The notes: generated from the letters alone by a model not told the origin. 64,000 nucleotides of DNA from an uncultured delta proteobacterium (GCA_963789265.1 CAWBKB010000001.1:1664001-1728000); one strand, 5' to 3'; shown: positions 4,636 to 22,687, numbered from the stretch's first letter. Made by a program: numbers and translations.

Positions 4636-5328
4636 CTATTTCCCGATCGCGCAAATCATGATCGGCTTAATGTCAGCCGGCAGTTTCAAAGCTGCGGCCA
4701 CCTGAGCGTCCACGAAGGCCCCCACGCCGGCCACGTGAAGGCCAAGCGATTCGGCCTGCAGGAACACGTTTTGATTTGCCGCTCCGGCATCCATATATAC
4801 GTACTGCACTCCGCGGTCACCGTACTTGACCATGGTTCTCTGAAACACCGCTCCGATCACCATCAGCGCCGGTGCTTGAGCAAGAAAGAGCTGGTGGTGG
4901 GCCGCGTAAGCTACCAAGTTGCGCTTGTCGCCTGCTGCAATGGATTGGAGGGAATTCCCCCGGGAATTGTATCTGTACACACCCGCGGGAAGTCTCCCCA
5001 CTGTGTTTTGACCACACACGAGAAAGACCTCAAGCGGATAAAGTCCGCCGGCCGAAGGAATCACTTTCGTCGTGGCGCTTGTGACTGCATCCGCGGGCAG
5101 GTTGCCGTTGGCCGCCCACAGCATCTGGGAGGCTTGGGCTAAAGTCAATGGAGTTCGGCTGAAGTCACGCACCGAGTGTTTACGCACTACAGCGGCTTCA
5201 AACGAAAGTTTCCCCGAAAAAGTAGGCTTAGGTAACTTGACTTCGTTTCCCGCGGCCGCAGAGGTCAACGGCATCAAGGCCAGCAGCGTCACACCGACAG
5301 CAAGAGACATTCGGCAAGAAATTCTCAT
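4636..5328 (-). CDS. SagB/ThcOx-family nitroreductase-like dehydrogenase with signal peptide
   Basis: SVRDF, PSAGGLYPLE, DAG...QN.FLQA.SLGL motifs; start taken at ATG 5328. Confidence 0.88.
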   Translation of the reverse strand: MRISCRMSLAVGVTLLALMPLTSAAAGNEVKLPKPTFSGKLSFEAAVVRKHSVRDFSRTPLTLAQASQMLWAANGNLPADAVTSATTKVIPSAGGLYPLEVFLVCGQNTVGRLPAGVYRYNSRGNSLQSIAAGDKRNLVAYAAHHQLFLAQAPALMVIGAVFQRTMVKYGDRGVQYVYMDAGAANQNVFLQAESLGLHVAGVGAFVDAQVAAALKLPADIKPIMICAIGK

Positions 5329-5554
5329 CCGTGCCCCCGTGTATTGTAATTTCACGTCAAAGCTATAGCTCAAGGATCAGGGAATTTCAATCTCTTGATC
5401 TTCTGACGTCTGACGGCGAAGTTGCCGTGGAGTAGAAGAGATTTCAAGGATTACCCCTGTTCGCGCTCATAGTACGAACTTCTATTCGTGTGTGCGCCAC
5501 TGGGGCTGTTTGCCGACGACAGACATTACTGTACGGCTCTAGTAAAGAAAGAGC

Positions 5555-5583
5555 TTGACAAGGTTTGTAGGAACCCCTAGGCT
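5555..5583 (+). promoter_or_regulatory. sigma70-like promoter of leader ORF 1
   Basis: TTGACA-N17-TAGGCT about 45 bp upstream of the ATG at 5629. Confidence 0.5.
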
Positions 5584-5628
5584 GAAACCAGTGGCAACCT
5601 AGTTATCTCCTGGCGTAGAGTCTCGCTC

Positions 5629-6072
5629 ATGACACGACTGAGGAAATTGAGGCCGACGATTCGAATCACGCTTGTGGTCTATCTATTTGTCGTCGGCTCG
5701 GGTGCGGCCATGGCTAGGAGATGCTGTTATCTTCATTGCGGTCAAGGGATGCACCACGCGGACGTATGTGCCCGTTTGCATGCGCATGGTAGTGATTGCG
5801 CAGTTCACGATCACAATCCTACCTCAAAGTACTCAGCAGCCATGGACCGGCAATGCCACTGCTTAATCCTGCCAACGGGTACGGTTAACTCTTCCATAAA
5901 CCCCTTTGAGGCTGCGGAATTCTCCAGGTGTATTCATGGTGCTGCTTATGCTCCATGTTTGACAGGCTTAACGCTTGATTCGCAGGCCACTAATGGAGGT
6001 CGTCACCCACCCCGACTTTCTGACTTCAAACCTGTCTCTGAATCCCTTCAGACTGTCTCTCTGCTCATTTGA
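5629..6072 (+). CDS. Cys/His-rich secreted small protein (DUF2946/HYC_CC_PP-like leader ORF 1)
   Basis: Signal peptide, RRCCYLHC, CHC, late RHPP, C-terminus SESLQTVSLLI. Confidence 0.65.
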   Translation: MTRLRKLRPTIRITLVVYLFVVGSGAAMARRCCYLHCGQGMHHADVCARLHAHGSDCAVHDHNPTSKYSAAMDRQCHCLILPTGTVNSSINPFEAAEFSRCIHGAAYAPCLTGLTLDSQATNGGRHPPRLSDFKPVSESLQTVSLLI

Positions 6073-6196
6073 CCGTCTCGGAAGAATAGCCACAGAATCC
6101 GCTCGCCTTGGTTTCTAGTTAGAAGCCCGGGAGTTCTGTTCAGAAGTTCGCGTGCTTCCGCTTAACGGGGGTCGCGGCAAGAAGGGAGATACGAAT

Positions 6197-7048
6197 ATGC
6201 CCCAGAGAATCGGGATTGGGAGCGTTGGTGCCAAAGACTGCCTGTTTGCCCAAGATGCAGAAGGGCTTAAGGAATTGGTCGAAGCCGCCGTGGCGAAGGG
6301 GGTTGACCTGACCTTGGCCAAACTCGAAAGAGAAGATTTGTCTTTTGCTGACTTGTCGCACGCCAGGCTGAACGCTGCGGATTTGTCAGGGACGATCCTT
6401 GCGGGAGCCAGATTAGATGGAGCCCGTCTTTCCGTCGCGAAGCTGGATAAGGCTGACTTGTCCAACGCGGATCTCTCGAATGCCGGTTTGCTCGGAACCA
6501 CGCTGACGGGTGCCAAACTCGTCGAGGCCACTCTCAAGGGGGCTGTCTTGTGCGGCGCGAATTTATGCGGCGCAAATCTGTGTAAAACAGATTTGTCGCA
6601 GGCTGATCTGTCCAGGGCGAATCTGTCAGGAGCAAATCTTTCCCAAGCGATACTCTCCTTTGCCACTATTGCAGGTGCTTTCCTCTTGGGAACGAAACTC
6701 GACAAGGCAGCGCTGGCCGCTGTCGAGCTGTCCCGAGCCGATCTATCAGGGGCCAATCTCGCGAGTGCGGACATGACTGGAGCAGTTTTGGCGGGGGCCA
6801 GATTGAACGGTACCAATCTTGTAAATGCAGACCTGTCTTATGCCGATTTCACTGGAGCTCAACTCATGGGAGCAGATTTGTCAGGGGCCGATCTCACCGG
6901 AGCTGATTTACGCGGAGCCGACTTATCGGGCGCGAACCTTTCGGGTGCGCAGATGATGGGAGCCGATCTGACCGATGCCGATCTATCCGGAACCGATTTG
7001 AACGGCGCAGATTTGAACGGTGCGAACCTCGATGGAGCACGAAGATGA
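6197..7048 (+). CDS. Pentapeptide repeat protein
   Basis: Long run of A(D/N)Lxx repeats; SD AAGGGAG before ATG 6197. Confidence 0.92.
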   Translation: MPQRIGIGSVGAKDCLFAQDAEGLKELVEAAVAKGVDLTLAKLEREDLSFADLSHARLNAADLSGTILAGARLDGARLSVAKLDKADLSNADLSNAGLLGTTLTGAKLVEATLKGAVLCGANLCGANLCKTDLSQADLSRANLSGANLSQAILSFATIAGAFLLGTKLDKAALAAVELSRADLSGANLASADMTGAVLAGARLNGTNLVNADLSYADFTGAQLMGADLSGADLTGADLRGADLSGANLSGAQMMGADLTDADLSGTDLNGADLNGANLDGARR

Positions 7049-7177
7049 AGGCTTCTCTCTCATTGCGCGGCACAGTAAAACAGGGGGGATGGCGGGAATG
7101 CTCGTAAAAGAAACAAGTCTGGACCTTCCTTGCGGCTTAATCATATTGATATATACTGTTGTTAGAGGGAAATAGCG

Positions 7178-9139
7178 GTGAGCCCAACTACCAAGACGCC
7201 ATTACTGGAAAATGGGACTATCCTCAACGGCAAATGGGAGATTTTGGAACACATTGCTACGGGAGGGAAAGGGGAAGTTTACTGCGCTCGCCAGACGAAT
7301 CTCAATCGAGAAGTGGTCGTCAAGACAGTATCTACCGAGTATCTCGCGGAATTTGGAGACGACTTGGCGGAGGTGGAGACTGAAATTCAGCGTTTCCATC
7401 GAGAGGCTTCGGCAATGGCCCAGATACGGCACCCATACGTGGTTCAGGTCTACGACCAGGACGCGGCTACTATCGTAAAGAACGGAGAAGAGATTACGGT
7501 CCAATACGTTGTCATGGAATACGTTCCCGGCAACCGGACACTGCGGCAGACAATGCCGCTGGAGGGATTCAAGGCAAGGGAAAGAGATTTGAGGCAGTGG
7601 ATTAGAACCTATTTTCTTCCCATGTTTGACGGACTGGCGACAGTTCATGCCCTTGGCATAGTCCATCGCGACATGAAACCCGAGAACGTTCTCTTGGATG
7701 GCGCCACTCCGAAGATCACCGACTTTGGAATTGCAGGAGGGCCTCTGTGGTCGCACCTTACCAAAAGCCACCATGTTGAAGGCACAATCACCTATATGGC
7801 CCCGGAACAATTCATGGACTTGGGTGAAGCTGACGGCCGAGCCGATGTATATGCCCTGGGCAAGATGTTGTACGAGGCAGTCGAGGGAAAGATGGTGGAC
7901 AGCAAAACCGCATGTCCCCTTAGGGGTGTATGCCTCTCAAATCCCTCCACCCCCTTCCTGAAAGAATTGGACCTCATCATACAACAGGCCACCGCGGAGG
8001 ATAAGGAAGCAAGAATTCCTTCCGTCAAAGCCATGCGGGAGGATTTGGAAAAGCTGCTGTACAAAGCTGATGTTGCGGACCGTCCACTGCTCAAAGGTCT
8101 TTCTCGCAAAGAAAAGATGCTTATCGTCGTCCTGATTGCGATTTTAATGGGACTCATCGTCTTCTCCAATATAGTTCACCACTACTTCATGCTGCATGAA
8201 GAGGCAGCCTCAATGCACCATTCGGCAACGGTTTCCGTGCACGGCCCCGCCATGAAGAAGAACAGCGGCAAGGGAGCTTCAACCCTCGAACAGAAATCTT
8301 CTGGTTCCGTGCTACTCGGTAAAGACGGCTCCACGATGCGCCTCGTCCCCGGAGGAGAGGTGACCGTTTCAGACCTTCAGGGGCGAAAGCAAGGGCCGCC
8401 CCTTAAAGTGAGCCCGTTTTATATGGACGAAACTAAGGTTACCAATGCCGATTTCGTCGAGTTTTTGAATCAGGTTCTACCGAAACTCGCTGTAAAAGAC
8501 GGCGTGGTTTCGAACGACGGCCACATCTGGTTCTTTCTCGGTCACGTTTACGGCGGATATGAACCCATTATATTTCGTGACGGCAGATTTTCGTTGAAAG
8601 ATGATTCGTTTGCTTCTTACCCGGTAGTTCGAGTAACGGGATATGGGGCCGCGGCCTACGCACGGTTCTACAGCAAAGTGCTGCCCACAGAATCGCAGTG
8701 GCTTCAGGCAATAATACAGGGCAAAGACGATTCCGGCCACGGTACGAAACCCGGTTCTACTCCGGAAACTTCTCAACTCGAGAAAGATATGAAGTCTTGG
8801 GTGGAAGCTTATGGTTCACAGGATCAGATACCGGAAAATATCTCCAGATCGACCGCGTCACAAATCCCGTATCCTGTTTCAAAGTTTGGCCCTGACAAAC
8901 TTGGAATCCGAGGGTTGGAAGAAAACGTTAGCCAATGGGGCCTACGAGCTATAGGCCGGTCTAAGAAAGCCGGGTCAAGAAATGAATACGTTGTCTTGGG
9001 CGGGTTGAGAGGGGATCTGGTACTAGACTCCACTCTTGTCCCCGGTGTCCCACAGGACCCCTCGCATGCGTTTCAGGATGTGGGCTTCAGATGCGTGATT
9101 GCCGCGGACATCAAGACCCTGCGCAGTGCGGCCCCTTGA
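7178..9139 (+). CDS. Hanks-type Ser/Thr kinase - TM - FGE/SUMF1-like domain fusion
   Basis: GGKGEVY, HRDMKPEN, DFG, APE motifs; TM near aa 315-335; PFYMDETKVTN, YPVVRV, VGFRC. Confidence 0.92.
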   Translation: MSPTTKTPLLENGTILNGKWEILEHIATGGKGEVYCARQTNLNREVVVKTVSTEYLAEFGDDLAEVETEIQRFHREASAMAQIRHPYVVQVYDQDAATIVKNGEEITVQYVVMEYVPGNRTLRQTMPLEGFKARERDLRQWIRTYFLPMFDGLATVHALGIVHRDMKPENVLLDGATPKITDFGIAGGPLWSHLTKSHHVEGTITYMAPEQFMDLGEADGRADVYALGKMLYEAVEGKMVDSKTACPLRGVCLSNPSTPFLKELDLIIQQATAEDKEARIPSVKAMREDLEKLLYKADVADRPLLKGLSRKEKMLIVVLIAILMGLIVFSNIVHHYFMLHEEAASMHHSATVSVHGPAMKKNSGKGASTLEQKSSGSVLLGKDGSTMRLVPGGEVTVSDLQGRKQGPPLKVSPFYMDETKVTNADFVEFLNQVLPKLAVKDGVVSNDGHIWFFLGHVYGGYEPIIFRDGRFSLKDDSFASYPVVRVTGYGAAAYARFYSKVLPTESQWLQAIIQGKDDSGHGTKPGSTPETSQLEKDMKSWVEAYGSQDQIPENISRSTASQIPYPVSKFGPDKLGIRGLEENVSQWGLRAIGRSKKAGSRNEYVVLGGLRGDLVLDSTLVPGVPQDPSHAFQDVGFRCVIAADIKTLRSAAP

Positions 9140-9156
9140 TCTGAAGGTACTAAGAA

Positions 9157-9936
9157 TTAGTTGCAAATCATTATCACTGTTATGTTGTCTTCGCCGCCCT
9201 TGATGTTAGCTGCGGTCACGAGATCGTTGCAGGCCTGCTGGGGCTCGGGTGCTGATCCCACAATGGCAAGAATTTCCTCATCTTCAAGCATATCCGTAAG
9301 TCCGTCTGTGCACAGAAGTAGACAGGCGCTCCTTTCCCACGGCCGGACCACCACTTCCGTTTCCACGTCGTCGGCCACACCCAAAGCCTCAGTCAACCCA
9401 TGACGCGCACGGTGGGAGCGGGCCTGCTCTTTGGTGATGAGCCCTTCTTTCATCCACTCAAATACAAACGTATCATCGTCGGTGAGCTGCTTTATTTCGC
9501 CTTTTAGTATGGAGTAGGCCCGGCTGTCTCCCACATGGCCGATAATGACCTGTGGGGGAACCGCGAGGGCAATCAGCAACGTAGTACCCATTTCCTCCCA
9601 CGCGGGATTGTTCAAGGCGTTTTCGAAGATTGATCTGTTGGCCTGTGCAATAGCCTCACGAACAACCCGATCTGCCTCCTTTCCCGCTTCGAGGCCTTCC
9701 CGAACCGATTTTGCAGTGACCTGGACGGCCATTCGACTCGCCACTTCACCAGCGTTGTGACCTCCCATGCCGTCGGCCACGATGAATAGCCCCAGGTTCT
9801 CGTCAACGTACAAGCTATCTTCGTTGATTTCTCTCTGCTTTCCCGGATCTGTAAGCCATCCGACTTTCAAGGTGCTCTCCTCGGAGATTGTGCCCCTAGA
9901 TACTATTTTTTGTAGTCTGATTCGATAGAAGCTCAT
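9157..9936 (-). CDS. PP2C-family Ser/Thr phosphatase (Stp1/PrpC)
   Basis: NED, VADGMGGH, GTT, HVGDSR, CTDGL, DNIT motifs. Confidence 0.93.
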   Translation of the reverse strand: MSFYRIRLQKIVSRGTISEESTLKVGWLTDPGKQREINEDSLYVDENLGLFIVADGMGGHNAGEVASRMAVQVTAKSVREGLEAGKEADRVVREAIAQANRSIFENALNNPAWEEMGTTLLIALAVPPQVIIGHVGDSRAYSILKGEIKQLTDDDTFVFEWMKEGLITKEQARSHRARHGLTEALGVADDVETEVVVRPWERSACLLLCTDGLTDMLEDEEILAIVGSAPEPQQACNDLVTAANIKGGEDNITVIMICN

Positions 9937-10019
9937 TCATATATAGGCATGTTCGATTGAACGGGCAAGTAATAATACCTCTTATACCAATGCGCCATCA
10001 AACAAGTGACAATCCCGGA

Positions 10020-10176
10020 GGATATGGTGGGGCGATCCGCGGGGTCACCCCGGACGCCGATCCCGGCTATGTCGGGGCGGACCCGCGTGTCCACCCGGGG
10101 CAGACACATGGGTCTGCCCCTACAATTGATGCCCGCGTACGCGGGCATGACGCCATGTAAGGGCGGGTTTGAAACC
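10020..10176. repeat. Cluster of REP-like GC-rich palindromes
   Basis: GTGGGGCGATCCGCGGGGTCACCCC; GTCGGGGCGGACCCGCGTGTCCACCC...GGGCAGACACATGGGTCTGCCCCTAC; GATGCCCGCGTACGCGGGCAT. Confidence 0.7.
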
Positions 10177-10352
10177 CAATGCTGTTGACTCAAGAGATCT
10201 CCGTCTAGCAGCACCGTCACCCCGGCGAAGGCCGGGGTCCAGAGAAGATTAGGAAAACCTGGATTCCGGCCTCCGCCGGAATGACGAGGCCAGGGCCTCG
10301 TGGAAAGCAAGACTCCTGGGCAAGAGACATCCAGCTTAAGTCAACAGCATTG
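10177..10352. mobile_element. IS4-like MITE, family B copy 1, with 11-bp target duplication
   Basis: TIR CAATGCTGTTGACTCAAG / CTTAAGTCAACAGCATTG (17/18 match); direct repeat GGTTTGAAACC at 10166-10176 and 10353-10363. Confidence 0.85.
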
Positions 10353-10461
10353 GGTTTGAAACCCGCCCCTACCAAACTGTCCCACTAAAAACACGGTGTC
10401 TCTCGTTTGAAAGCGAATCGGTATTAGAAGTCCAGTCGAAGATATTGTTATTTCTCGTTCA

Positions 10462-10582
10462 TAGTCCCGCGTCTCGCGGGGACTGCCTGGGAATACCTGC
10501 CCCAGAGGCTCTGCCTCGACTGTCATAGTGAAATAATGGCTGTTTGAGGGCAGAGCCCACGAGACGCGGGATTGGGAACCAG
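10462..10582. repeat. Degenerate GAGGCTCTGCCTC/GCAGAGCC-type palindromic repeat with CCCGCGTCTCGCGGG inserts
   Basis: TCCCGCGTCTCGCGGGG at the left and CCCACGAGACGCGGGA at the right are inverted. Confidence 0.55.
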
Positions 10583-10671
10583 AACTATTTTACTTGATAA
10601 AGCAACTAGTCAATGAGGAGAGACTTGACTTTTCAAAGAACTAGGATAATCATAGACAACAGAGAGCGATC

Positions 10672-11073
10672 ATGAAACGGGCATCCGCAATAATACTCAG
10701 TTTACTGCTCTTTTGGGCCGGTGTTGCCTACGGGTTCCCCGGTGCGTGTTGCTGCGCAACAGCGTGTGGGCGCTTGATGAAGTTCGCGGACGACGGTTGT
10801 GGACCCGAGCAAGACCATTCGTGCAATCACAACGGATTTGGTTGCCACTGTAAGGGCGGCTGTCTTTCTCTGCAATGCGCCGGAGAACTCGATGCAATGG
10901 CTCTGCCGCAAGCCTATTCCGTACGCGCTGAGCATCAAGTTTTTGCGTTGCCCGCGCCAATTGTGATTGTCGAGGCGGGCCTGCGTTCCGCCCGGTCGAT
11001 ATCGCGCCAATTTCATTCCTTCCACTGGAACACCACAAATCTTCTCCTACAAACTTGTTCCTTCCTTTCCTGA
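10672..11073 (+). CDS. Cys/His-rich secreted small protein (leader ORF 2)
   Basis: Signal peptide; CCC..AC, CHCKGGC; C-terminus TNLLLQTCSFLS. Confidence 0.7.
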   Translation: MKRASAIILSLLLFWAGVAYGFPGACCCATACGRLMKFADDGCGPEQDHSCNHNGFGCHCKGGCLSLQCAGELDAMALPQAYSVRAEHQVFALPAPIVIVEAGLRSARSISRQFHSFHWNTTNLLLQTCSFLS

Positions 11074-11269
11074 CTAAAAGGACATCTGCTTGCACTTCGG
11101 GGGAAACCGATGCTTGTCGAATTTGCGCTGTTTCTCCTCGACAGCGCAAGTCGGCCTCTGTGCGGCTGCAATGGCGGTGATTACTGAAGCAGCCGGAGGT
11201 TTATAGAATAGAAGATCTGAAGCCTTCTGTTCGTAATGGACTCTGTGGGGTCCGGAGAGAGAGGTAAAC

Positions 11270-13054
11270 ATGCCCGCCGCAAATCGTGCCATGCGGTTGC
11301 AAAAGTCCATTATTTTGTGCTCGGCCTGCGGCATTCTGATGGTGGGGGTTATAGTTGCTGCTGCCAGCATACTGCCTCTTTATGACCATCTGAAAAAGGT
11401 GGAGGAGAGCCATCTCAGGTGGGCACTGAATACCAAAATCCAAAGCCTCGAAACGTACCTGGCAAGATCCGTCAATGCAGCCTCGAGAATTGCCTGGATT
11501 GCTAAGGCTGCGGAAAGCCTTGAAGATTACGACAATAGCCTCATCGGTCACGACAAGGTGACGGCGACAACGGGGAAGGCGCTGTCCAATGCGATGCGCT
11601 ATTCCAATGGCGTAGCTGGCGTCACTCGCTTTGATAGGAAGGGTCAACTACTGGTGCAGGTTGGTCAGGAATTGCCCGAATTAGCGAGTCTCGCGAAATT
11701 GCCGGCACGAGGAGACTCCCGTTCCGCTGGCCCTTTAGTCGTGGCCACTTCGACCTTGTGGGGCTTGATGATTGCGATACACGGCAGAGAAGGGGCCCGA
11801 ATCGGGACAGACTTTGTAACCTTCAGGACATCTGATCTGGAACAAGCTCTGGGATACAACACCGACGATCTTCGGGGAATGAGTAAGACGGTTTTGGCAG
11901 CCACCGACCGCAACCGGATAACACCAATCTTTCCCCCCCACGACCCGGAAAACATACGGACTACTTCTTCCGCCCTCGGGTTGGCTTTGAAGCGCGCAGC
12001 CTTGAAACAGACAGGTCTCTTGTTTCCGGGCAAAGATCATACCGGAAATGAGGTCGTCGCGTATGGACCTGTGCCCGGGACCCCTTGGGTCGTCGCGGTC
12101 ACGACGGACAAAAAGGCGCTGTATGCCCCGGTGTATCCTCATATTATCTCGACGTCGGCGGTCATTGGAATGCTCATACTAGTGGGCACGTTCGGCATGA
12201 TCTTGCTGGTTCGTCCGCTAACCGGAAAAATGGTTATCCACGCGGATGAACTGGAGCAGCAAGTTCGGGAAAAGCTGAAAATCATTGACAATCTCTACGA
12301 ACATATCGTCCAGTCTGAAAAATCCAAAGCCATTGCCGAACACACAGCCGAGGTGGCTCATGAGTTGAGACAGCCGCTGGCTATTATTGGTGGCTTTGCC
12401 AACAGAATGGCTCAGCACTTCGAATCTCAGGGCACTTGGGGGCCGGAGCAAAAGGAATCCTGCGGGATCATAATTTCGGAGATTCGGAGGCTGGAAAAAA
12501 TCCTGGGTGGTCTTATCGACTTCACGAAAAGGCGAAGCCTTAGCGCGGAGAAGGTCCAGCCCAATGACGTGATCCAAAATGTTATAGTAGCGTATGCCGG
12601 TAAGTTGACGGAGAGAGGCATAAAGCTAGAAACTGATCTTGGCAGCGAGGTCGGCGAGGTCGTCTTGGATCCGAACCGTTTTGAGCAGGTCATCCGGAAC
12701 CTTCTGTCCAATGCTATGGACGCATCTCCTGCGGGCGAGTCGATATCCATTCAAACTAGAATATTAGTTCCCGGAGATAAAGCAAGAGAGATCGGGGAGC
12801 TTGAGTCAAAAAGCTATTTCGAAATGAGAGTTCATAATTACGGTCCTGTAATCTCCCCGGAACATTTGCAGAAAATTTTCAGCCCCTTCTTTACTACGAA
12901 GGATGGTGGAAACGGCTTGGGTTTAACCGTGACCAAGAAAGTTGTGGAGGACCACAATGGTTCCATTTCTGTCAAATCCGATGAGGAGGGGACGGCGTTC
13001 ACCGTGTGGCTTCCTATTGGTCAAGATCCTTTAGACCGGGGCATCGGAAAATGA
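11270..13054 (+). CDS. Membrane sensor histidine kinase (periplasmic Cache-like domain, HisKA, HATPase)
   Basis: Two TMs; [26 protein letters not shown] motifs. Confidence 0.92.
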
Positions 13055-13281
13055 AGGTCGGAGATGTCGGAGCGGGTTTTGTGGGATCGACGTCAGCGGA
13101 CGCGTTGGTTATGACGGGTGTGGGAAGCGAAATTGTGCTCGCGGATAAGAATCGTAGCCGGGCTGAAGCCGAAGACATTTTTCATGCCGTGCCTTTTGCC
13201 CACAGCGTTCGGATCACTGCGGCCTGCTGCGACCTGTATAAAAAACAGTCGCTACGCTCAAGAAATGGGAGAGAGCAATGA
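13051..13281 (+). pseudogene. ldh: L-lactate dehydrogenase N-terminal relic (~58 codons of similarity)
   Basis: [37 protein letters not shown] is the LDH Rossmann start with substitutions; similarity ends near 13225. Confidence 0.75.
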
Positions 13282-14838
13282 ATGACACGGTTTCTATACC
13301 CAAGAAGACGTTGAAAAGAATTCTCTTGGGATCCCTGATCCTCGCCGTACTGGCGGTGGGCCTCCTGCTGATCAGAGGTTCAAAAACGGAACAACCGTCT
13401 GCTGAATCCCAGAACTCTAAACCTGCTCCAATGGCATCCATGGGAAAGGAGAAAAGTCCGGCAAGTCCGGCAATGAAGGGCCACACGCAAGGCGCGCCCG
13501 CTGCAACGTCGCAAGCGCCCGGTAAAGGCCCTGTCCGATACACTATGTCGCCGGAAGCTAAGATGCTCGCGGAAGTGCAGACGGCAAAGGTGAAACGAGA
13601 GCGGGCGGTAAAGCACTTGCGAATGGTTGGGATGGTTTTCGATGCCGAGACCAGGATCGCGACCCTGACAGCGAGAATTCCCGGGCGTCTCGACGCGGTC
13701 TACATAGATTATACCGGGGTGAAGGTCAATGTGGGAGATCCGATGGTGATGATCTGGAGCCCGACTCTGATCACGAGTGAAGTCGAATTGTTTACGAGCA
13801 TTAAAAAGCCCGATATCAACCTCGATACCAAAGGGATCATCCGCGGGGCAGAAGAAAAGCTCAAACAGTACGGGATGACCAAAGAGCAGATCAAAAAAAT
13901 CCGGGAAACCGGAAAGCCGGACGAGGTACATAACTCTCAAGGCCCCCATCAGTGGAATTGTCATGCAGAAGAACGCTATTGTCGGCCAGTTCGTGAAGGA
14001 AGGCACAGAGATGTTCGTAATCAACGACTTGTCCCATGTATGGGTCAAGCTCGATGCCTACGAACCTGACCTGCCCTGGATCAGGTACGGTCAGGAAGTC
14101 ACTTTCACGACGCCGTCTTTTCCCGGGAAGACCTACAAGGGTAAGGTCATCTTCATCGATCCTGTCCTGGACATGCCGACTCGGACCGTGAAGGTAAGAG
14201 TCGATGTGGCAAACCCGAATTACGAATTGAAACCCCACATGTTCGTCAACGGGGACCTGGAAGCCGAAGTAGACGATCACGGCCGTGTCGTGAAGCCGGA
14301 GTGGGTCGGAAAGTACATCTGTCCCTTTGATCCTCGAGAAGTAAGCTCGACTCCCGGGACATGTTCAAAGACCAAGCAGCCTTTGCAGCCCGCGACTGCG
14401 TATGGGTATTCCGGCGTGACAAATCCAGTCCCGCCTCTGGTCATACCCGAGACAGCCGTGCTGTTCACAGGCAAGCGATCCATTGTTTACGTTGAAGTCC
14501 CCAATCAGCCTGATCCCACTTACGAGCAACGGGATGTGACCCTGGGGCCCGAGGTTGGGAACTATTACGTGGTCCGCGACGGCCTGAAAGAAGGCGAGCA
14601 GGTAGTTGTCAAAGGCAATTTCCAGATCGACAGTTCGATCCAGATTCTCGGCGAGCCTAGTATGATGAATCCGGTTGAGTCTCAGGCGCCGCCAACAGTG
14701 GAAATGCCAAGCTCTCACACGACCCCCGAGAAGGATTCCCATCAAGGCACGAAAGAGCAAGGGACGGGTTCAATGTCGAACATGCCTATGAACACGGCTC
14801 CGAGTCCTCATCCCTCTCATGGGAAGGAGGGACGATGA
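13278..14838 (+). CDS. cusB: Cu/Ag efflux RND periplasmic adaptor (CusB-like), frameshift at ~13926
   Basis: [41 protein letters not shown] motifs; removing one G at 13925-13926 joins ORFs 13278 and 13963. Confidence 0.85.
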
Positions 14839-17800
14839 TGTCAACTCATAATAGTGAAACAGAAGTTGCAACGCCCACACTTTTCTCGAAAATGATGCGC
14901 TTCTGGATGACCCAGAAGCTGCTGGTGTTCATAGGTTTGATCGGCCTTATCGCAGTGGGTTTGGTAGTCGCTCCTTTTGATTGGAATGTACCGCTTCTGC
15001 CGCGAGACCCAGTGCCCGTGGATGCAATTCCCGACATTGGCGAAAATCAGCAGATCGTATTTACCAACTGGATAGGGCGATCTCCTAAGGATGTGGAGGA
15101 CCAGATTACGTATCCTCTGACCATAGCACTCCTGGGAATCCCTGGAGTGAAGGCCATCAGAAGTTATTCATACTTTTCATTCTCCAGCATATACGTCGTT
15201 TTTGAAGACAAGATCGATTTCTATTGGTCCCGAACCCGTATCCTGGAAAGGCTCAGTTCTCTCCAGCCCGGGACACTGCCGGCAGGAGTTCAACCTGTGC
15301 TTGGTCCGGACGCTACGGCGGTGGGGCAGGTCTTCTGGTACACAGTTGAAGGCAAAGGCTTTAGCCTGGACGAACTTAGAACTATTCAGGATTGGTACGT
15401 CCGATACTACTTGGAGTCGGCCAAAGGCGTAAGCGAAGTTGCCTCCGTGGGAGGATACGTCAAGGAATACCAGGTAGACGTGAACCCCAATGCAATGAGA
15501 GCGGCCGGGGTAGTGCTGCAAGATGTTTACACGGCAGTACAACGGTCCAATCTCGATGTCGGGGCCCGTACGATCGAATTGAACAACGTGGACTACATAA
15601 TACGAGGTTTAGGATGGATCGGCTCTACGAAGGACCTTGAAAATGCCGTCGTAAAAATGACTCGGAATATCCCAATCCGGGTGAAGGATGTGGCCAAAGT
15701 ATCGCTCGGGCCTGCATTCAGGGAAGGGGCGCTCAATAAGGGGGGAGCTGAAGCCGCTGGCGGCGTGGTAGTCGTTCGTTTCGCGGAAAATCCGTTGCAG
15801 GTGATCAAGAATGTCAAAGCCAAGATCAAAGAGATTGCTCCTTTCCTCCCCAAAAAGACCCTGCCGGACGGCACGGTTTCTCAGGTCAAGATTGTGCCGT
15901 TCTATGACCGCACGCAACTTATCCATGAAACCCTTGGGACATTAAAAAACGCTCTGTCTGATGAAACCCTGGTTGCGATCATCGTCGTGATCGTGATGGT
16001 CAACAATCTGATCAGTTCGGCCCTCATTTCACTTGTTCTGCCCTTGGCCGTGCTCATGACCTTCATAATAATGAAGGCATTCGGCGTGGACGCCAACCTT
16101 ATGGCGCTTTCCGGAATTGCTATTGCCATCGGAGTCATGGTGGACATGGGAATTATTCTCTGTGAGAATATCTTGCGTCATATAGAACATGATCCACCGG
16201 GAAAGAGTAGTTTCCAGATTATTCATGAGGCAGCGACCGAGGTGGGAGGCGCTGTGATCACCTCCGCCTCCACGACGATCATAGCCTTTCTGCCGGTATT
16301 CACGTTGACCGGTCCTGAAGGAAAACTGTTCAAACCCGTGGCGTTCACCAAGACGTTCGCCATAGCAGCTTCGCTCGGTACTGGCCCTTTCCGTTATACC
16401 TCCCCTGGCCCACATCTTGTTCACCAAGAGGAACCTGAGAGCGAAAACGCTGACCATCGCGTACGGAGTGGTGACAATCGCGGGTTTGGTAATAGGGTAC
16501 TGGGTATCGTGGCCCATTGGCTTCGCGGTGATGCTCATGGGAGTCGTGAAGCTGGTTTCGCTCTTTTTACCGCCGGCGATACGAAGCAGGGTCTCGATGG
16601 CCATGAACCTGATCGCCTTAGTTTTGGTCGTGTTCCTGCTCACGGAACACTGGATGCCTCTCGGCTTGGAAAAAGGACTGTTCAGGAACATGGTTTTCGC
16701 CGCGGGAATCATTTTCCTGCTTTTGGGGTTCAACAAGCTCGTCACCATCTACTACCCTCGTGCCTTGGCCTGGGCTTTGGGACATAAGGCGACTTTCTTG
16801 GCCATCCCGATTTCTCTCGTGATTCTGGGAGTTACGATGTGGCTCGGATTTGATCGCGTTTTCTCATTTATCCCCGGGGCCGCTGAGTGGACAGGGCTGG
16901 TGCGCCCCGTGTCAATGGAGCAAATGAAAGAAACGCCTAAAACCAAGGCTCCTCAAACCAGTATGCCCGGCATGAGCATGCCCGGCATGAGTATGGGCAA
17001 GCCTGGCGAGGCAGAAATCCCAAAAGGCCCGATACGCTCCACCTGGGTTTGGCGGAAACTCGCGCAGGTTTTTCCCGGCTTCGGCCAGGAGTTTATGCCT
17101 CCTATGGAGGAGGGCACATTCCTTTATATGCCTACGCTCATGCCCCATGCATCGATCGGGACTGCGCTTGATGTCATTCGCCAGCAAAACCTTGCAATCC
17201 AGGCGATTCCTGAAGTGCAGTCCGCGGTAGGAAAGATCGGCCGCGTTGAAAGCGCACTCGATCCGGCACCCCTTTCAATGATTGAGACTATCATCAACGT
17301 GAAACCGGAATACAAGACCGATCCCAAAACGGGCGAGCACGTGCTCGACCCGAAGACGGGCCTTCCCATCCGGTATTGGCGGCCGCAGATCAAATCTATG
17401 AACGATGTCTGGAATGAGATTGTCAAAGCAGCCGACGTTCCGGGCACAACAGTGGCCCCCAGGTTGGAGCCCATAGCAGGCAGAGTAGAGATGCTCTCAA
17501 CCGGCATGAGATCGGCCATGGGAGTAAAAATCAGGGGGAACAGCCTGGAGGATGTCAACAAGGTCGGCCTTGAAATCGAAAAGTATCTCAGGGAAGTGCC
17601 GAGCATTGAGCCGACCTCAGTCATCGCGGACCGCTTGATCGGAACGCCATACCTGGAAATCAATATCGATAGGCAAGCTATAGCCAGGTATGGGGTCAAT
17701 ATTCAGGATGTTGATGATGTTATCGAAATAGCGATCGGAGGCAAGCAAATCACGACTACGGTGGAAGGCCGGGAGCGCTACCCGGTGAGAGTTCGCTACG

Positions 17801-18702
17801 AGAGAGAACTACGCGACTCGGTTGAAGCACTGAAGAACATATTGGTACCCGCGTCCAACGGTGCGCACATTCCAATGCGTCTGGTGGCAGACATAAAATA
17901 TGTTCGCGGTCCAATGGTCATCAAGAGTGAGAACACTTTTCTGGTCGGCTACGTGCTCTTCGACAAGAAACCCGGTTTTGCCGAAGTAAGCGTGGTTCAG
18001 AACGCGGATAAGTTTTTGAAACACAAGATCAGCATGGGAGAGCTGAAACTGCCCCCGAATGTCTCGTACTGGTTCGCCGGCTCATACGAAGATGCGGTTC
18101 GGTCGCAAAAGACCATGATGATCGTGATTCCGGCGACCCTGTTGGTGGTGTTTCTGATCCTGTACTTTCAGTTCCAGTCGGTGCCGACTTCTCTGAACGT
18201 CTTTTCCGGAATTTTCGTGGCATGGTTTGGAGGCTTTTTGCTGATATGGTTGTATTCCCAACCGTGGTTCCTTGATTTCAGCATTTTCGGCGTCAATATG
18301 AGGCATCTGTTTCAAGTAAGGACGTACAATCTCAGCGTGGCTGTGTGGGTAGGATTCCTCGCCTTATTCGGTATCGCCACGAATGATGGGGTGATCTATT
18401 CTACGTACTTGGATCAGGTATTCGAGAAACACGCGTTCCATTCCGCATCCGAAATCAGACAAGCAACCGTCGAAGCCGGCATGAAGAGGATCAGGCCCGC
18501 TCTTATGACCGCCTCTACCGCCATCCTTGCCCTTATCCCAGTGCTTACGTCGACGGGACGCGGCTCGGACGTCATGGTGCCTATGGCTCTGCCGATTTTT
18601 GGAGGTATGCTCGTGGCCACGATTACTATCTTCGTGGTTCCTACTATCTATTGCCTGGAGAAAGAAATCTTGTTCAAGCGGCGAAAGGAATCGGCAAGCT
18701 GA
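14835..18702 (+). CDS. cusA: Cu/Ag efflux RND permease (CusA-like), frameshift at ~16377
   Basis: DAIPDIGENQQIVFT, GPDATAVGQVFWY; Met ligands FMPP, LSMIET, EMLSTG; RIRPALMT; removing one G at 16377-16378 joins the ORFs. Confidence 0.9.
16960..16995 (+). repeat. 15-bp tandem repeat encoding SMPGM within cusA
   Basis: AGTATGCCCGGCATG AGCATGCCCGGCATG AGTATG. Confidence 0.8.
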
Positions 18703-18793
18703 GATAATGTTAGAGGAAACGTAAAATAATTGGAAATTCGGTTTGTGTCATACAGTTTTCAGTTTCCATTCGAAGGAACTTTGGAGGCAAGAG

Positions 18794-19648
18794 ATGAAAA
18801 CAGGTTGTCGATCCGTGTTGTTCGTGGCGGGAATCCTTCTGATGCTCGTCTCGGTCACATCGCAAGTAGGTGCAGACGAGAACGCCGTCAGAGTCTATGG
18901 AGCAACCACGTTTGCCGAGCCGATGCGAATCCTTGGAAAGGGATTCATGAAAGAACACCCTGCTGTTCGGGTGGGAGTCCTCGGCAAGACTTCCGAATTT
19001 GGATTCTTATCATTATTGAACAAAGAAACGGATCTCGTCATGGCCGCACGTAAGCCCACGGTAGTGGAGAGACGTTTAGCCGAACAAAAAGGTATCCAGT
19101 GGGCGGGAGCACGCGTGGCTTGGGAGAGGGTGGCTGTGATTTCCCACCCCGGCCTTGGAGTGACCGAACTAACCGTGGATCAACTTCGGAAGATTTATAC
19201 GGGCGAGTACAAAAACTGGAGGGACTTGGGCGGAATAGACCAGCCTATCATGTTGCACAGCCTGCCTTATCCGCAAGATGATATCGCGGTTCGGTTTGCG
19301 CACAATGTTCTCAGCAAAGCTGAGTTCACTTCAGGCATAATCTGGGTCGAGACGCCGGATTTCCTTGTTCAGCATGTGAGCGTCCACAATGGGGCAATAG
19401 CGTATTTGGGCAACCTCCAGTTCACGGGCATCGTCAAGCGTCACCCCCTGCGGAAGGTCCAGGTCATCAGCATGCGTGCAAATAGCGAGTCGCCGGCGAT
19501 CAGTCCTTCTGCCGAGATTTCTATAAAGGGACAATATCCGCTGACCGTTCCGCTCTTCCTTTTCTGGAAGAAAAAGGAGCCGAATAAATGGACCGAGCAA
19601 TTTGTACGCTATTGCATCGAAAAGTTTCAGGAGGCGGTCAGAAAATGA
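18794..19648 (+). CDS. PstS-like periplasmic substrate-binding protein
   Basis: Signal peptide; VYGATT, LTVDQLRKIYTGEYKNWRDLGG, YPL motifs; SD GGAGG. Confidence 0.8.
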   Translation: MKTGCRSVLFVAGILLMLVSVTSQVGADENAVRVYGATTFAEPMRILGKGFMKEHPAVRVGVLGKTSEFGFLSLLNKETDLVMAARKPTVVERRLAEQKGIQWAGARVAWERVAVISHPGLGVTELTVDQLRKIYTGEYKNWRDLGGIDQPIMLHSLPYPQDDIAVRFAHNVLSKAEFTSGIIWVETPDFLVQHVSVHNGAIAYLGNLQFTGIVKRHPLRKVQVISMRANSESPAISPSAEISIKGQYPLTVPLFLFWKKKEPNKWTEQFVRYCIEKFQEAVRK

Positions 19649-19659
19649 GGTACCGAATC

Positions 19660-19865
19660 GGCAAGGCGACCGGCGCGGAGGCCGGTGCTACCAAATAGGG
19701 TTCCGGCCACAGGCATCAGGCACATCAGAATGCGTGATCGAATTTATGAAATAGGGCCTAAGCACTCGTTTAACAAGTTCGGCGACATATTCCGGGTTGT
19801 AGTGGGACAGGCATCTTGCCTGTCTATTTCATGATCGACGGGCAAGATGCCCGTCGCCACCAGGT
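19660..19865. repeat. REP-like palindrome cluster
   Basis: ACCGGCGCGGAGGCCGGTGCTAC; GTGGGACAGGCATCTTGCCTGTC...GACGGGCAAGATGCCCGTCGCCAC. Confidence 0.65.
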
Positions 19866-19927
19866 CATTTGCCAAATCGGTCATCATATTTGAGAACCGC
19901 CATAGCTGTCAAAAAGGAGAAAAACAA

Positions 19928-20695
19928 ATGCAGGCAAAGCACAGAAGTGCTTTAGCGAAAACACTAGGTATATTGGTTGCGGCCGCGGTCGCGATGCTTG
20001 TTCCGTTGGCTTCTGGCGCCGTGGATCTCTTGCAGTTGCCGGACGGGTCGAAGATAGACCTTGCCCAGAAGTGTCCGGTTTGTGGCATGGTAATCGGTGG
20101 AACGGCCAGGCAGGCCGTCACCGTCACCTTCAAGGACGGACATGTAACGGGTTTTCATGGTGTGGCGGCAGCAGTCTTCAAGGATGGCCAAGTGGTGGGA
20201 TTTGAAGGGGCTCGCTGTCTCTTCATTTACAATTCCGTTCCCCAGAAGTACCACGTCAATGTTGCGGATATCGCTCACCAGTATGTCACGGATTACACGA
20301 GCAAAAAGATGATTGATCTGGCCAAGGCTTTTCTTGTTCTCGGCAGCAATGTAAAGGGTCCAATGGGTTACGATCTTGTGCCCTTCAGTAGCAAAGAGGA
20401 AGCAGCAAAATTCGCATCCGAGAATGATGGCAAGTGGATTGTGCAGCTCCACGAAGTATGCAAGGCAGCGCAAGAAGGAACCGATAGGTCCGGACCAACT
20501 CCAGCCTCCGTGACTCCGAGTGTGACTGAAAAGAGCTCACCGGTTCCCGCGGCAATCGCCGGGTCAGATCAAGCCGGAACATCGCGTTCCCGAGAAGCCT
20601 GTAACGCCCCCGGTGCGCCCACAACCACAAGGCCGAAAATCCATTCCGCCGGCCTCCAGGAAAGGCGGCTGTTAAGCCGAGTTGACAATAAGTAA
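19928..20695 (+). CDS. NosL-family copper-binding protein with low-complexity tail
   Basis: Signal peptide; KCPVCGM, VTDY, GS.V.GPMG.DLVPF...EEA..F motifs. Confidence 0.85.
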   Translation: MQAKHRSALAKTLGILVAAAVAMLVPLASGAVDLLQLPDGSKIDLAQKCPVCGMVIGGTARQAVTVTFKDGHVTGFHGVAAAVFKDGQVVGFEGARCLFIYNSVPQKYHVNVADIAHQYVTDYTSKKMIDLAKAFLVLGSNVKGPMGYDLVPFSSKEEAAKFASENDGKWIVQLHEVCKAAQEGTDRSGPTPASVTPSVTEKSSPVPAAIAGSDQAGTSRSREACNAPGAPTTTRPKIHSAGLQERRLLSRVDNK

Positions 20696-20916
20696 ACGGC
20701 AATAGTTCGCCGTGGAGAACACAGAGACCGCGGAGAATTCGGTTTCGCGTGTACGTCTATCCGCTTAAACACTGCAAGTTCTGGCGTGCAACAGCGAGGG
20801 CAATTCCGGCATGACTGTCCGCGTGGGTGACTCACCTGGCGTTGAATAAGCTACCTTTTTTCTCTGCGTTCTCTGCGCACTCCGCGGTGAATCCTGAATA
20901 CCGGGTGAACGGTTAG
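20694..20916. repeat. CACCGCGGAG/CTCCGCGGTG-type inverted repeat element, family D copy 1
   Basis: ACGGCAATAGTTCGCCGTGGAGAACACAGAGACCGCGGAG ... CTCTGCGTTCTCTGCGCACTCCGCGGTGAA; similar element at ~48355-48545. Confidence 0.6.
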
Positions 20917-21058
20917 GGAAAACGGCTTATTATTACATTGCCCTTGCCTGCTCCCAAACGATCGGCTTTGTCAAGGAATTGCATTACCGCTGATTGACAT
21001 AGCGATTGTGCGTGCTTACATAAATTATGTAGAGGCTTTGGAAAGGAGAAGCCGGGCA

Positions 21059-21459
21059 ATGATGCGGCTAATGCTCCCCAGGATACGTCAACTACTGGTA
21101 CTAGGTCTTGGGCTTCCCGTGGCTCGATGGCTCTTGCAATTCCATTGCATTGCTACTGTGACATCGGTCACGAGAATTACGGGTGTTCGCTTGGGGGTTA
21201 TCATTCCTCACGTGGGCTCATCTTGGAGGCCGCTTGTGCCGGCTGTGATTGTGAAGCATGTCCGCAGCGGCCCGTTTGGCTGAATAACTCCAATGTCAAA
21301 CAGGACTTCTCTGAGGCGACGTCGTCTCAGACTTCTGCTCTGTCGCTGCCGGGATCTTCGTTCGCTGCTTCTTCAAGCCTACCTGTTTTGTCATCTTACC
21401 CGTTTCTGAAATTCAGCTCCACTGTTGATTCTCTCCTTACAATCGTACTACTGATCTGA
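21059..21459 (+). CDS. Cys/His-rich secreted small protein (leader ORF 3), probable 1-nt deletion at ~21120
   Basis: SD AAGGAG and TTGACA at 20994; adding one G at ~21120 gives MMRLMLPRIRQLLVLGLGLPVGSMALA-IPLHCYC..CAGCDCEAC; C-terminus VDSLLTIVLLI. Confidence 0.6.
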
Positions 21460-21624
21460 AAACCATCTTCATCCAGAGCCCGTTGTAGCGGATATTCACA
21501 GAGCCCCGCGTATGCGTGATTAGACGTGATGAGATCCCGTGAAACCTCGTAAGAACCTTGGCATGGGATCCTCGATGCGCATGTCGACGGAGCGAGAATG
21601 GTTCGAGAAAAGAGGAGAAAGACA

Positions 21625-21858
21625 ATGAAAAGGATTATCGCTCTATGCGCCGTACTGGCCTTGCTGACACCCGCGTATGCCTTCGCGCATGGTGACACCA
21701 TGTATAGGTTGCAAAAGAAGTGGCAGCTTGAGCAAGCTCAGGAACAGCGAGAGTTGCCCTCCATCAAAGGCATCAAAGCTGATGTAGCGAAGGCAATGAA
21801 GTCTTTCCAGACTTGCAAGATTTGCTCAATCCAACAGGAACCGATCAATTCGAAGTGA
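21625..21858 (+). CDS. Small secreted protein with mature N-terminal His (AFA-HG) and CxxC
   Basis: SD GAGGAG; clear signal peptide; W..EQ...QREL motif; CKIC. Confidence 0.7.
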   Translation: MKRIIALCAVLALLTPAYAFAHGDTMYRLQKKWQLEQAQEQRELPSIKGIKADVAKAMKSFQTCKICSIQQEPINSK

Positions 21859-21930
21859 TCTAGAACCGGATCTGAACAGTGGTCTTAGCCTGCAAGGGTG
21901 GGCCATTGTTCAATCCGGAGGTGCTTTGTC

Positions 21931-22164
21931 ATGAGAAACGTCATTATGGCATTAACTCTCGTCGGGTCTTTGGTCTTAGTTTCCGCTGCTTGGGCACGCG
22001 GAGGGGAAGGAAGAGGAGAGCTGGACCGGATTTGGCATGAACAACGGCTCCAGCAGAGGGAATTGGCCTGTGCACTGAACAAAACCTGTCCGGCCAAGGC
22101 TAAGGCCCTCAGAAACTACATAAACAATCTGCCGAGAATCTGGAAGGCCGACGAAGATGGATGA
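21931..22164 (+). CDS. Small secreted protein, likely paralog of 21625
   Basis: SD GGAGG; signal peptide ending AWA; WHEQRLQQREL; two Cys. Confidence 0.7.
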   Translation: MRNVIMALTLVGSLVLVSAAWARGGEGRGELDRIWHEQRLQQRELACALNKTCPAKAKALRNYINNLPRIWKADEDG

Positions 22165-22246
22165 CTAAAGACCGGGCTACTGGAATGTCTTGGCGGACTA
22201 TGACTACGGTGGCCGGTGTTCCCGCAGTTATGGGCGGCAAGAGATT

Positions 22247-22533
22247 GTCATTGCGAGTCCCGCGGGACGCGCATTCGCGTTAAGTTAAGGCAATTTCGTT
22301 CCTTTTCAGGAGGTCCATGCAGGCGGAGGGCGTTCAAAGTCCCCCTTTTCTAAAGGGGGATTTAGGGGGATTTTCAAATAGTTATCCAAAAATCCCCCCT
22401 GGCCCCCCTTACGAAAGGGGGGGAACCCCGCGTTTCGCGGGGCGTTAACTTAACGCCTATGCGCGGGACGCGGGAAAGCAATCTCTTCCTCTAATGGCGT
22501 AGATTGCTTCGTCGTTTCACTCCTCGCAATGAC
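22247..22533. repeat. GTCATTGCGAG...CTCGCAATGAC palindromic repeat (host of a MITE)
   Basis: GTCATTGCGAG at 22247; GAAGCAATCT / AGATTGCTTC arms; CTCGCAATGAC ending at 22533. Confidence 0.75.
22272..22461. mobile_element. MITE, family C, with 11-bp target duplication
   Basis: TIR CATTCGCGTTAAGTTAAGGC vs reverse complement of the right end CATAGGCGTTAAGTTAACGC; direct repeat CGCGGGACGCG at 22261-22271 and 22462-22472; internal CCCCCTTT..AAAGGGGG palindromes. Confidence 0.85.
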
Positions 22534-22687
22534 GGAGAACCGCGAACTCCCCCGTGTGACCGAATGCTTGCGGTCACGGCTGGAAAGGGCTTTACAATGC
22601 TCGCTGCCTACTATAAAAATTGAGGGTAAGCATACGTCTTGCAGATAATGCCCGGACTTGATCAGGCCGGTCTTAAAGGAGGAAAAT

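Follow-up and report, generated by a model that had tools for sequence, protein, structure and literature searches.

The window analysed here is a stretch of 64,000 nucleotides from an uncultured delta proteobacterium (GCA_963789265.1 CAWBKB010000001.1:1664001-1728000, numbered from its first letter). It carries three small genes, referred to as leaders A, B and C, encoding Cys-rich proteins with a predicted export signal and a similar hydrophobic C-terminal tail. Leader A (5629..6072, + strand) encodes 147 amino acids and ends in a TGA stop. Its residues 1-30 form a predicted export signal, Lys/Arg-rich at first, then hydrophobic and ending in AMA; it is followed by a first Cys motif (residues 32-37; 5722-5739), a second Cys motif of the CxC type (residues 76-78; 5854-5862), the sequence RHPP (residues 125-128; 6001-6012) and the tail nonapeptide (residues 139-147; 6043-6069). 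Leader B (10672..11073, + strand; 133 amino acids, TGA stop) has no Pro-Pro (PP) motif. Its signal is followed by CCC at residues 26-28 and more cysteines as far as residue 69, and its tail nonapeptide occupies 11044-11070. The predicted signal of both proteins has a Lys/Arg-rich start and 15-17 hydrophobic residues, with AYG in B at the place of the AMA of A. The list of open reading frames (ORFs) and the raw sequence give the ORFs of A and B, their Cys clusters and their tails exactly as quoted by the first-pass annotation of this DNA.

Leader C (21059..21459, + strand; ORF list, contig comparison and ortholog in genome G026) is split over two frames in this assembly. A frame of 74 codons starts at the ATG at 21059, behind a ribosome-binding site of the GGAGA type; it holds a signal-like N-terminus only and stops at 21283. 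A second frame, 21127-21459, with 110 amino acids from its own ATG, contains the Cys clusters and the tail (21430-21456). The signal start, Cys clusters and tail previously reported for C as an ORF at 21059 thus all exist, but not in one frame, being separated by a one-base frameshift at about 21125. In a contig of metagenome run X1, spanning 21066-21441 with one other difference from the window, an additional T follows 21125 (depth 4.5 of 4.5) and joins both parts of C in-frame; in run X2 position 21125 is near a contig end and the insertion has 0 of 2.7 depth. In G026, a genome of the same genus, the C ortholog is a single frame. The extra T, this ortholog and an intact paralog, leader D, show that the frameshift is not the natural state of C; an export signal is found in C only with the frameshift read through.

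Within 13798-14143 and at 20749, too, single-base indels set the X1 contigs apart from the window, with hardly any substitutions, and the cusB and cusA genes located between B and C, each in two overlapping frames in the window, are whole in G026 (523 and 1294 amino acids). The frameshifts in cusB, cusA and C are probably assembly errors, that of cusA being less settled as the covered stretch showed no indel. Other "pseudogenes" of this genome may be artefacts as well, since the assembly is probably indel-prone.

Leader D, on contig C5 of the window's own genome, is an intact fourth copy which was found by a looser tail pattern and proved a true paralog of C. Its place behind glycosyltransferase genes shows that leaders of the C/D type need not accompany metal genes. 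A radical SAM gene near D suggested a precursor of a ribosomally synthesized and post-translationally modified peptide; this reading was rejected, the gene being on the other strand and absent from other loci. An additional 70-codon ORF (G000:C1:241572-241784, + strand) matches a profile trained without A-type members at E 0.015, and could be either part of a fifth member of the family or a chance match.

A family of small Cys-rich proteins

Direct similarity alone does not establish A, B and C as paralogs, the term used for them in the first-pass annotation. Pairwise BLASTP gives a best E of 0.027 and no match between A and C, the A-family and B-family profiles align with a non-significant E of 0.13, single-sequence searches of the own genome with A and with B do not find the other at E up to 10, and the C fragment has no database homolog. 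The relationship is partly borne out by profiles trained without the tested subfamily and run on 45,338 genome ORFs. These give E-values of 3e-22 for A, 6e-4 for B and 0.0097 for D; for the truncated C the value is 0.056 with one training set and 1e-5 with another, and in each search the recovered leaders outrank every unrelated ORF. A strict tail pattern finds A, B and C only among the 61,248 stop-to-stop ORFs of at least 50 amino acids in the 6.06-Mb genome, and the looser pattern adds D only; both patterns were composed after A, B and C had been seen.

Relatives in other genomes keep the shared architecture and tail. Leader A has 14 database homologs (51-92% identity, all 146-148 amino acids), one of them with the source label Desulfomonilaceae, in which conservation falls on the signal region, on four Cys positions and on the last 17 residues, with the tail nearly invariant. 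The only database homolog of B, at 46% identity, has the last eight residues identical. An exhaustive search of 1.84 billion representative proteins with a 22-member profile (E up to 0.001) produced 75 matches, 69 of which end in the tail; the remaining six are two apparent frameshifted gene calls, two false matches to repeat proteins and two proteins ending in RAPP or RGPP plus two residues. Counting the window's own genome, the family is present in 11 of 70 genomes of the same bacterial family and in 25 of 401 sampled genomes of the phylum, representing 20 of 255 genera.

None of 74 family members reaches any cut-off in Pfam or NCBIfam. HYC_CC_PP, an NCBIfam model with which a match had been envisaged, has none with A-D at E up to 10, nor is it among the four NCBIfam families matched at E up to 0.1 by any of the 74 members. 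A protein atlas places the members in unnamed clusters only, the nearest named ones, DUF6769 and DUF8199, being leads only. Judged by their sequences, A, B, C and D are a true family that is missing from Pfam and NCBIfam.

The proteins have a common layout. They begin with Lys/Arg-rich residues and a hydrophobic helix, on which a first Cys motif follows immediately, and a variable, His-rich stretch separates this from a second Cys motif. Across the 74 sequences C32 and C78 hardly vary. The second motif reads CxC or CC in A-type members, and CxxC in those of the C/D type and in many from the wider phylum. From its last Cys to the C-terminus the median distance is 69 residues, with 65-74 in 81 of 97 sequences, and the stretch between this motif and the tail contains no conserved residue. 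The N-terminal side is more variable in length (standard deviation 14); one member has a 16-residue insertion on that side, yet retains the 69-residue spacing. AlphaFold2, run with the 74-sequence alignment, returns a mean predicted local distance difference test (pLDDT) score of 57 and is confident only for the N-terminal helix (residues 7-34), with the spacer at 42-53 and the tail modelled as a low-confidence short helix.

The C-terminal nonapeptide L-x-T/S-V-x-L-L-I runs up to the stop. Counted back from the stop in 82 non-redundant sequences, position -1 is I in 49, -2 is L in 69, -3 is L in 68, -5 is V in 39, -6 is T in 55 and S in 21, -7 is R in 37 and Q in 20, and -8 is L in 68. Further upstream, P occupies -13 in 34/82 and -21 in 24/82 (background Pro is 6.2%); PP begins at -21 in 14/82 and lies within -30 to -15 in 23/82. 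Codon usage was compared in 42 loci. Leu at -8 is encoded by CTT (14), CTC (10), CTA (6), CTG (5) and TTG (2), all four Thr codons are in use at -6, and the stop is TGA in 28, TAA in nine and TAG in five. This synonymous variation and the use of all three stops show that the peptide is under selection rather than a motif in the RNA or DNA. For the tail, a sorting signal like those of PEP-CTERM or LPXTG proteins was considered and rejected: such signals comprise a transmembrane stretch and a basic end after the motif, neither of which is found here.

Neighbouring genes and intergenic regions

The first gene after A, 124 bases past its stop, encodes a pentapeptide-repeat protein (6197..7048, + strand). 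It is followed by a Ser/Thr protein kinase with a C-terminal FGE-sulfatase domain (7178..9139, + strand), a recurrent partner of A-type leaders, and by a PP2C phosphatase gene (9157..9936, - strand), convergent with the kinase gene and adjacent to it also in G026 and G048. Leader B precedes a sensor histidine kinase (11270..13054, + strand), a cusB-type adaptor of the HlyD_D23 family (13278..14838, + strand; frames 13278-14069 and 13963-14838), a cusA/czcA-type pump of the resistance-nodulation-division (RND) class (14835..18702, + strand; frames 14835-16787 and 16417-18702), a periplasmic binding protein (PBP_like_2; 18743..19648, + strand) and a NosL-family protein (19847..20695, + strand). 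Leader C is followed by two small secreted proteins, ds1 (21625..21858, + strand), which has paralogs after D, and ds2 (21898..22164, + strand). Each leader had been described as the first gene of a co-oriented unit; this holds for A, B and their relatives, but C comes after the co-oriented nosL with a gap of 360 bases.

A kinase with Pkinase and FGE-sulfatase domains stands behind a leader in the window and in genomes G026, G048, G041, G049 and G025, with broken copies in G027 and G030. The whole pentapeptide-repeat/Ser-Thr kinase/PP2C module (window 6197-9936) is conserved behind A-type leaders in several genera, and in G041 it continues into co-directional cusB and cusA. The gene order in G048, a genome of a different genus, is A-like leader, kinase, PP2C, B-like leader, cusB, cusA. 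B stands directly before cusB in G048 and in the same island of G026, with no histidine kinase there. The histidine kinase gene (11270-13054) is found between B and cusB only in the lineage of the window, with G030 seemingly likewise, and behind it the ribosome-binding region of cusB still matches the B-to-cusB junction of G026.

In a neighbourhood survey of the phylum, the next co-oriented gene in 24 loci was classified by Pfam. It encodes an outer-membrane efflux protein (OEP) in 14 loci, a CusB-type adaptor after a small secreted protein in two, and a kinase (L064), an HMA-domain protein, a redoxin with DsbD, a ResB protein and a transposase in one locus each; three have no Pfam family. An RND-efflux component (OEP or CusB) is therefore next in 16 of the 24 loci, while in loci of the bacterial family a kinase, or CusB with the RND pump, comes next. 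Targets had been called unusual in the first-pass annotation; the kinases are indeed found, as a local speciality of one bacterial family, but the usual target in the phylum is an ordinary RND efflux operon. The tail is unchanged ahead of kinase, CusBA, OEP, small secreted protein, redoxin/DsbD, ResB and HMA-protein genes.

The tiny secreted proteins, also proposed as targets, do follow C and recur elsewhere as second genes ahead of pumps. Such proteins, of about 80-88 amino acids and without a Pfam family, occur right after the leader in the window and in loci L005 (10514-11091), L029 (6592-6843), L040, L044 and L061. In the last four the small gene lies between the leader and the next large gene, which encodes a CusB-type adaptor by Pfam in L029, L040 and L061 and has no Pfam match in L044. 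These proteins may be a periplasmic accessory of the pumps.

The syntenic island of G026 (L026 7538-7891 and 8655-9113) contains a truncated D-like leader with its small secreted gene and, between the PP2C gene and B, an IS200-like transposase. It seems that leader modules can move or duplicate. Palindromic repeats with arms of 34-39 nucleotides at 10157-10372, 10449-10587 and 22258-22475 bracket the island from B to C in the window, lying just before B and just after ds2; metagenome depth peaks there at up to 351 and 427, and short-sided contig joints connect the two places. These elements look like a dispersed repeat of the repetitive extragenic palindromic (REP) or miniature inverted-repeat transposable element (MITE) kind.

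The gap between the leader and the next gene measures 124-596 nucleotides in the 12 loci where it was determined. That between C and ds1 (21460..21624, + strand; 165 bases) was compared at the nucleotide level with the D locus and G026. The C/D intergenic region, including L005 10351-10513 and L026 17822-17974, is about 80-90% conserved and exceeds in this the N-terminal coding parts of the leaders themselves; the C and D loci of the one genome have 76% DNA identity over 575 bases, beginning in the tail. A stem predicted in this region takes in the stop codon. The gap between B and the histidine kinase gene holds a strong hairpin at 11120-11150, with a stem of about 10 pairs and no U-run, which is not conserved in G026 or G048.

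Consensus scans over 5300-23000 do not exceed shuffled sequence, with 18 promoter-like sites against 11.9 (standard deviation 3.5) and 17 terminator-like sites against 18.3; the promoter-like site of B is the only one of the leaders' among those listed. Rfam models give nothing at or near gathering scores. The hexamer TTGACC over the stop of A was examined as a downstream promoter and rejected, since its conservation is limited to A orthologs and B and C lack it. The coding strand of the leaders is C-rich and G-poor in all 42 loci, with a mean C minus G of +0.10, compared with -0.03 (standard deviation 0.05) in 2,561 long ORFs of the window's genome. This richness in C fits Rho loading sites, but may be a simple effect of amino-acid composition.

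Possible roles of the leaders

A, B and C most likely represent an undescribed branch of the CutF/CruR/CzcI-like small exported metal-sensor proteins. We tentatively favour the explanation that they are cis-acting, metal-sensing nascent-chain leaders of the CutF/CruR kind, a view which falls just short of what we would call probable. Each leader would head a transcription unit, and its N-terminus would be exported via the Sec pathway during translation. Both Cys/His motifs would reach the periplasm while the last 21 or so residues, with PP at -21/-20, P at -13 and L-x-T-V-x-L-L-I at the stop, would still be inside the ribosome tunnel. Metal binding or thiol chemistry at the Cys motifs could then alter the pull on the nascent chain and shift the dwell of the ribosome at or near the stop, with the dwell time setting downstream expression. 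By a rough estimate from the lengths of the ribosome tunnel and the translocation channel, 69 residues would put the second Cys motif some 20-30 residues past the translocon when the ribosome is at the stop.

An identical tail before unrelated genes suggests a partner common to all, for instance the ribosome tunnel or the translocon, and, together with the CruR/CutF-like pattern, favours such a cis-acting leader. The same reading is backed by selection on the tail as a peptide, the fixed spacing across an unconserved stretch, a PP motif at the DUF2946 distance in A-type members, proteins intermediate between the two groups, a gene position with OEP as the commonest neighbour and a predicted structure that is confident for the N-terminal helix only. 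The long gaps make transcription termination as in CruR likelier than hairpin melting of the CutF type over the ribosome-binding site, and a Rho-dependent mechanism as in CruR would fit both these gaps and the C-rich, G-poor leader RNA. We can also picture the last 21 residues as a new class of ribosome arrest or termination-stall peptide, built on the DUF2946 ruler and serving periplasmic metal/thiol control of RND pumps and eukaryote-like Ser/Thr kinases in Desulfobacterota; this more specific proposal is possible but doubtful.

Several observations weigh against the cis-acting leader, whose weakest part is the step from stalling to gene control. Gaps of 124-596 nucleotides are too long for simple hairpin melting. 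The RNA between stop and next gene, whose folding the first-pass annotation had proposed as a check, has no significant or covarying structure: it folds no better than shuffles after A (z +0.33) and C (z +0.62) and only mildly better after B (z -1.64), a comparison of three genomes shows no conservation of the intergenic region behind B, none of the 40 pairs predicted in the C/D intergenic region covaries or compensates, and no intrinsic terminator-like site lies behind any of the three leaders. The varied stop codons do not agree with a release-factor-specific stall, and the hydrophobic L-L-I end is, to our knowledge, no known arrest motif. B and C have the tail extension and lack PP, and none of the 74 members scores above the DUF2946 cut-off, the best being P0069 with E 0.02 and 16 bits, so the DUF2946-type relationship that had been suggested is not recovered by that model. 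The fixed length could instead reflect a fold invisible to AlphaFold. Finally, the exported protein CzcI, which by gene position is the nearest known protein, reportedly resides in the periplasm and quenches the CzcCBA pump there, according to the available part of PMC10127602.

The latter precedent leads to the main alternative, in which the leaders act in trans, as CzcI-like modulators in the periplasm or at the membrane. With metal bound to its Cys/His motifs, the exported protein would tune the pump or kinase encoded next to it, and the tail would serve for docking or membrane association. We consider this role rather unlikely, though well worth weighing. CzcI of Cupriavidus metallidurans pMOL30 is likewise a small exported His/Cys protein encoded directly upstream of czcCBA, 75 bases before czcC, and the position of czcI in czcICBA is that of the leaders ahead of an OEP gene, which is next in 14 of the 24 phylum loci. 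The CzcI sequence comprises a signal peptide, a His-rich stretch and, 49 residues before the end, CGVC. Two of the 74 members weakly touch the NCBIfam CzcI-like model NF045615 (best E 0.032), and three the model of the copper-homeostasis lipoprotein LpqS (best 4.7e-4). In contrast, hhalign of the family with pMOL30 CzcI gives a probability of 8% over 11 columns, and CzcI differs in its length of 115 amino acids, its Cys spacing, the absence of an L-L-I tail and its reported action in trans. A docking element specific to one operon is a misfit with an identical tail before unrelated genes, no fold is predicted for the mature part, and a fixed-length unconserved spacer would be unusual for a binding domain. 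The available part of the CutF-like survey (10.1101/2022.11.11.516240) places CzcI among those CutF-like proteins whose C-terminus has no proline motif.

Tail-specific proteases prefer non-polar ends, and nearly all members have one. The hydrophobic C-terminus may accordingly be read as a degradation or quality-control signal, recognized for example by a periplasmic C-terminal-recognising protease that keeps the sensor short-lived; such a signal could coexist with a cis-acting leader or with a CzcI-like role. CutF and SecM are reportedly degraded quickly after export, as stated in the available part of 10.1101/2022.11.11.516240. However, conservation that is 21 residues deep, with position-specific Pro, Thr and Arg/Gln, exceeds a usual C-terminal degron, and no protease gene is linked in the loci examined, which makes this function of the tail unlikely.

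For the A-type leaders alone, the recurrence of the FGE-sulfatase kinase behind them in the window and five other genomes, broken in two more, and the kinase gene next in L064 might point to a role as ligand, substrate or co-sensor of the neighbouring kinase, by way of its extracytoplasmic FGE-sulfatase domain. FGE enzymes bind Cu(I) through two cysteines. Most loci nevertheless have the same family before pumps and no kinase, A, B and C show no FGE target motif of the CxPxR type, and we regard such a partnership as very unlikely. A chance likeness among spurious ORFs, which the non-significant pairwise BLASTP and the absence of a C homolog from databases might suggest, is excluded by synonymous change in the conserved parts of orthologs and paralogs, the tail in 69 of the 75 matches, the recovery of members by leave-out profiles and the conserved gene position.

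Should the tail of a cis-acting leader be an arrest element, it would widen the range of arrest sequences and add a defined nine-residue motif to it. Otherwise, it marks a conserved interaction of these small, putative metal-binding proteins. CruR and CutF have shown how a peptide, while still nascent and being exported, can signal periplasmic copper to the ribosome; the cases known so far have proline-rich ends and come from Proteobacteria. The present family combines the same geometry with a different and more strongly conserved end, in anaerobic Desulfobacterota with different periplasmic thiol chemistry.

Comparison with known systems

The secretion-monitor arrest peptides SecM, VemP and MifM and the termination-stalling TnaC have conserved residues, Pro among them, over about 17-25 C-terminal positions, an export signal upstream and a place as the first gene of the regulated operon. 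The leaders resemble them in this arrangement; they differ in having a hydrophobic tail, and sequence similarity is absent.

A close parallel is formed by CruR of Bordetella pertussis (Bp2923) and the DUF2946 proteins, although the model PF11162 (gathering score 23.7 bits) has no match in A, B, C or D at E up to 10, and a whole-genome search with it found none of the four leader loci. The layout likeness to CruR and CutF proposed in the first-pass annotation is borne out in the export signal, Cys motif, fixed spacer, conserved C-terminus and position at the head of metal operons; for the known proteins it is taken from the available parts of PMC9426467 and 10.1101/2022.11.11.516240. The proteins compared have about 130-150 amino acids, their Cys motif stands at a set distance from a conserved C-terminal element (45 residues in CruR, 46-48 in A-type members), and long intergenic gaps follow in metal-related operons.

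The same annotation had called the family a "non-RAPP" variant, a label that does not fit A: its RHPP starts 46 residues after CxC, which is the DUF2946 spacing, and 19 more residues follow. Other A-type members retain R-x-P-P 46-48 residues past the Cys motif. In a by-eye set of 18 sequences, 17 have a PP motif, which ends 19 residues before the C-terminus in 14, 20 or 21 in two and 2 in P0073; PP lies 45-48 residues after the Cys motif in 15 of the set (A and 14 others). A RAPP or PPP within a few residues of the C-terminus, as in the known proteins, is found in none of A, B and C. Two proteins bridge the groups. P0069 has CxxC, 45 amino acids, RGPP and then 21 amino acids ending in the tail, and can be aligned from end to end with the A profile (E 1e-4). 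P0073 shares the N-terminal 100 residues of A (hhalign E 5e-6, probability 86%); at its end, at a distance of 67 residues from its CxC, stands RAPP with two more residues. As read from the protein sequence, A is the DUF2946 geometry with a 19-residue extension, which is the most conserved part of the family.

Set against DUF2946, A has CxC or CC in place of CXXC, its R-x-P-P stands 19 residues from the end and not three, and a hydrophobic nonapeptide that DUF2946 lacks reaches the stop. Unlike CruR/DUF2946, the family is found in Desulfobacterota and not in Proteobacteria, and some of its targets are Ser/Thr kinases. The CutF-like survey (10.1101/2022.11.11.516240), in the part of its text that is available, retained only proteins with PP at most 15 residues from the C-terminus, so the present family would have been missed; the word "Desulfo" is absent from that text.

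In CutF of Rhodobacter capsulatus, a stall at the C-terminal PPP melts a stem-loop over the next ribosome-binding site, as described in the available part of 10.1101/2025.02.05.636593. The short gap and stem-loop of CutF contrast with the leaders, where gaps are 124-596 nucleotides long and no such stem-loop was found. The likeness to CutF lies in the concept of an exported nascent chain that senses periplasmic metal, and, for the CutF-like proteins of Ozturk et al., in the commonest downstream neighbours, OEP, HlyD_D23 and ACR_tran of RND efflux systems.

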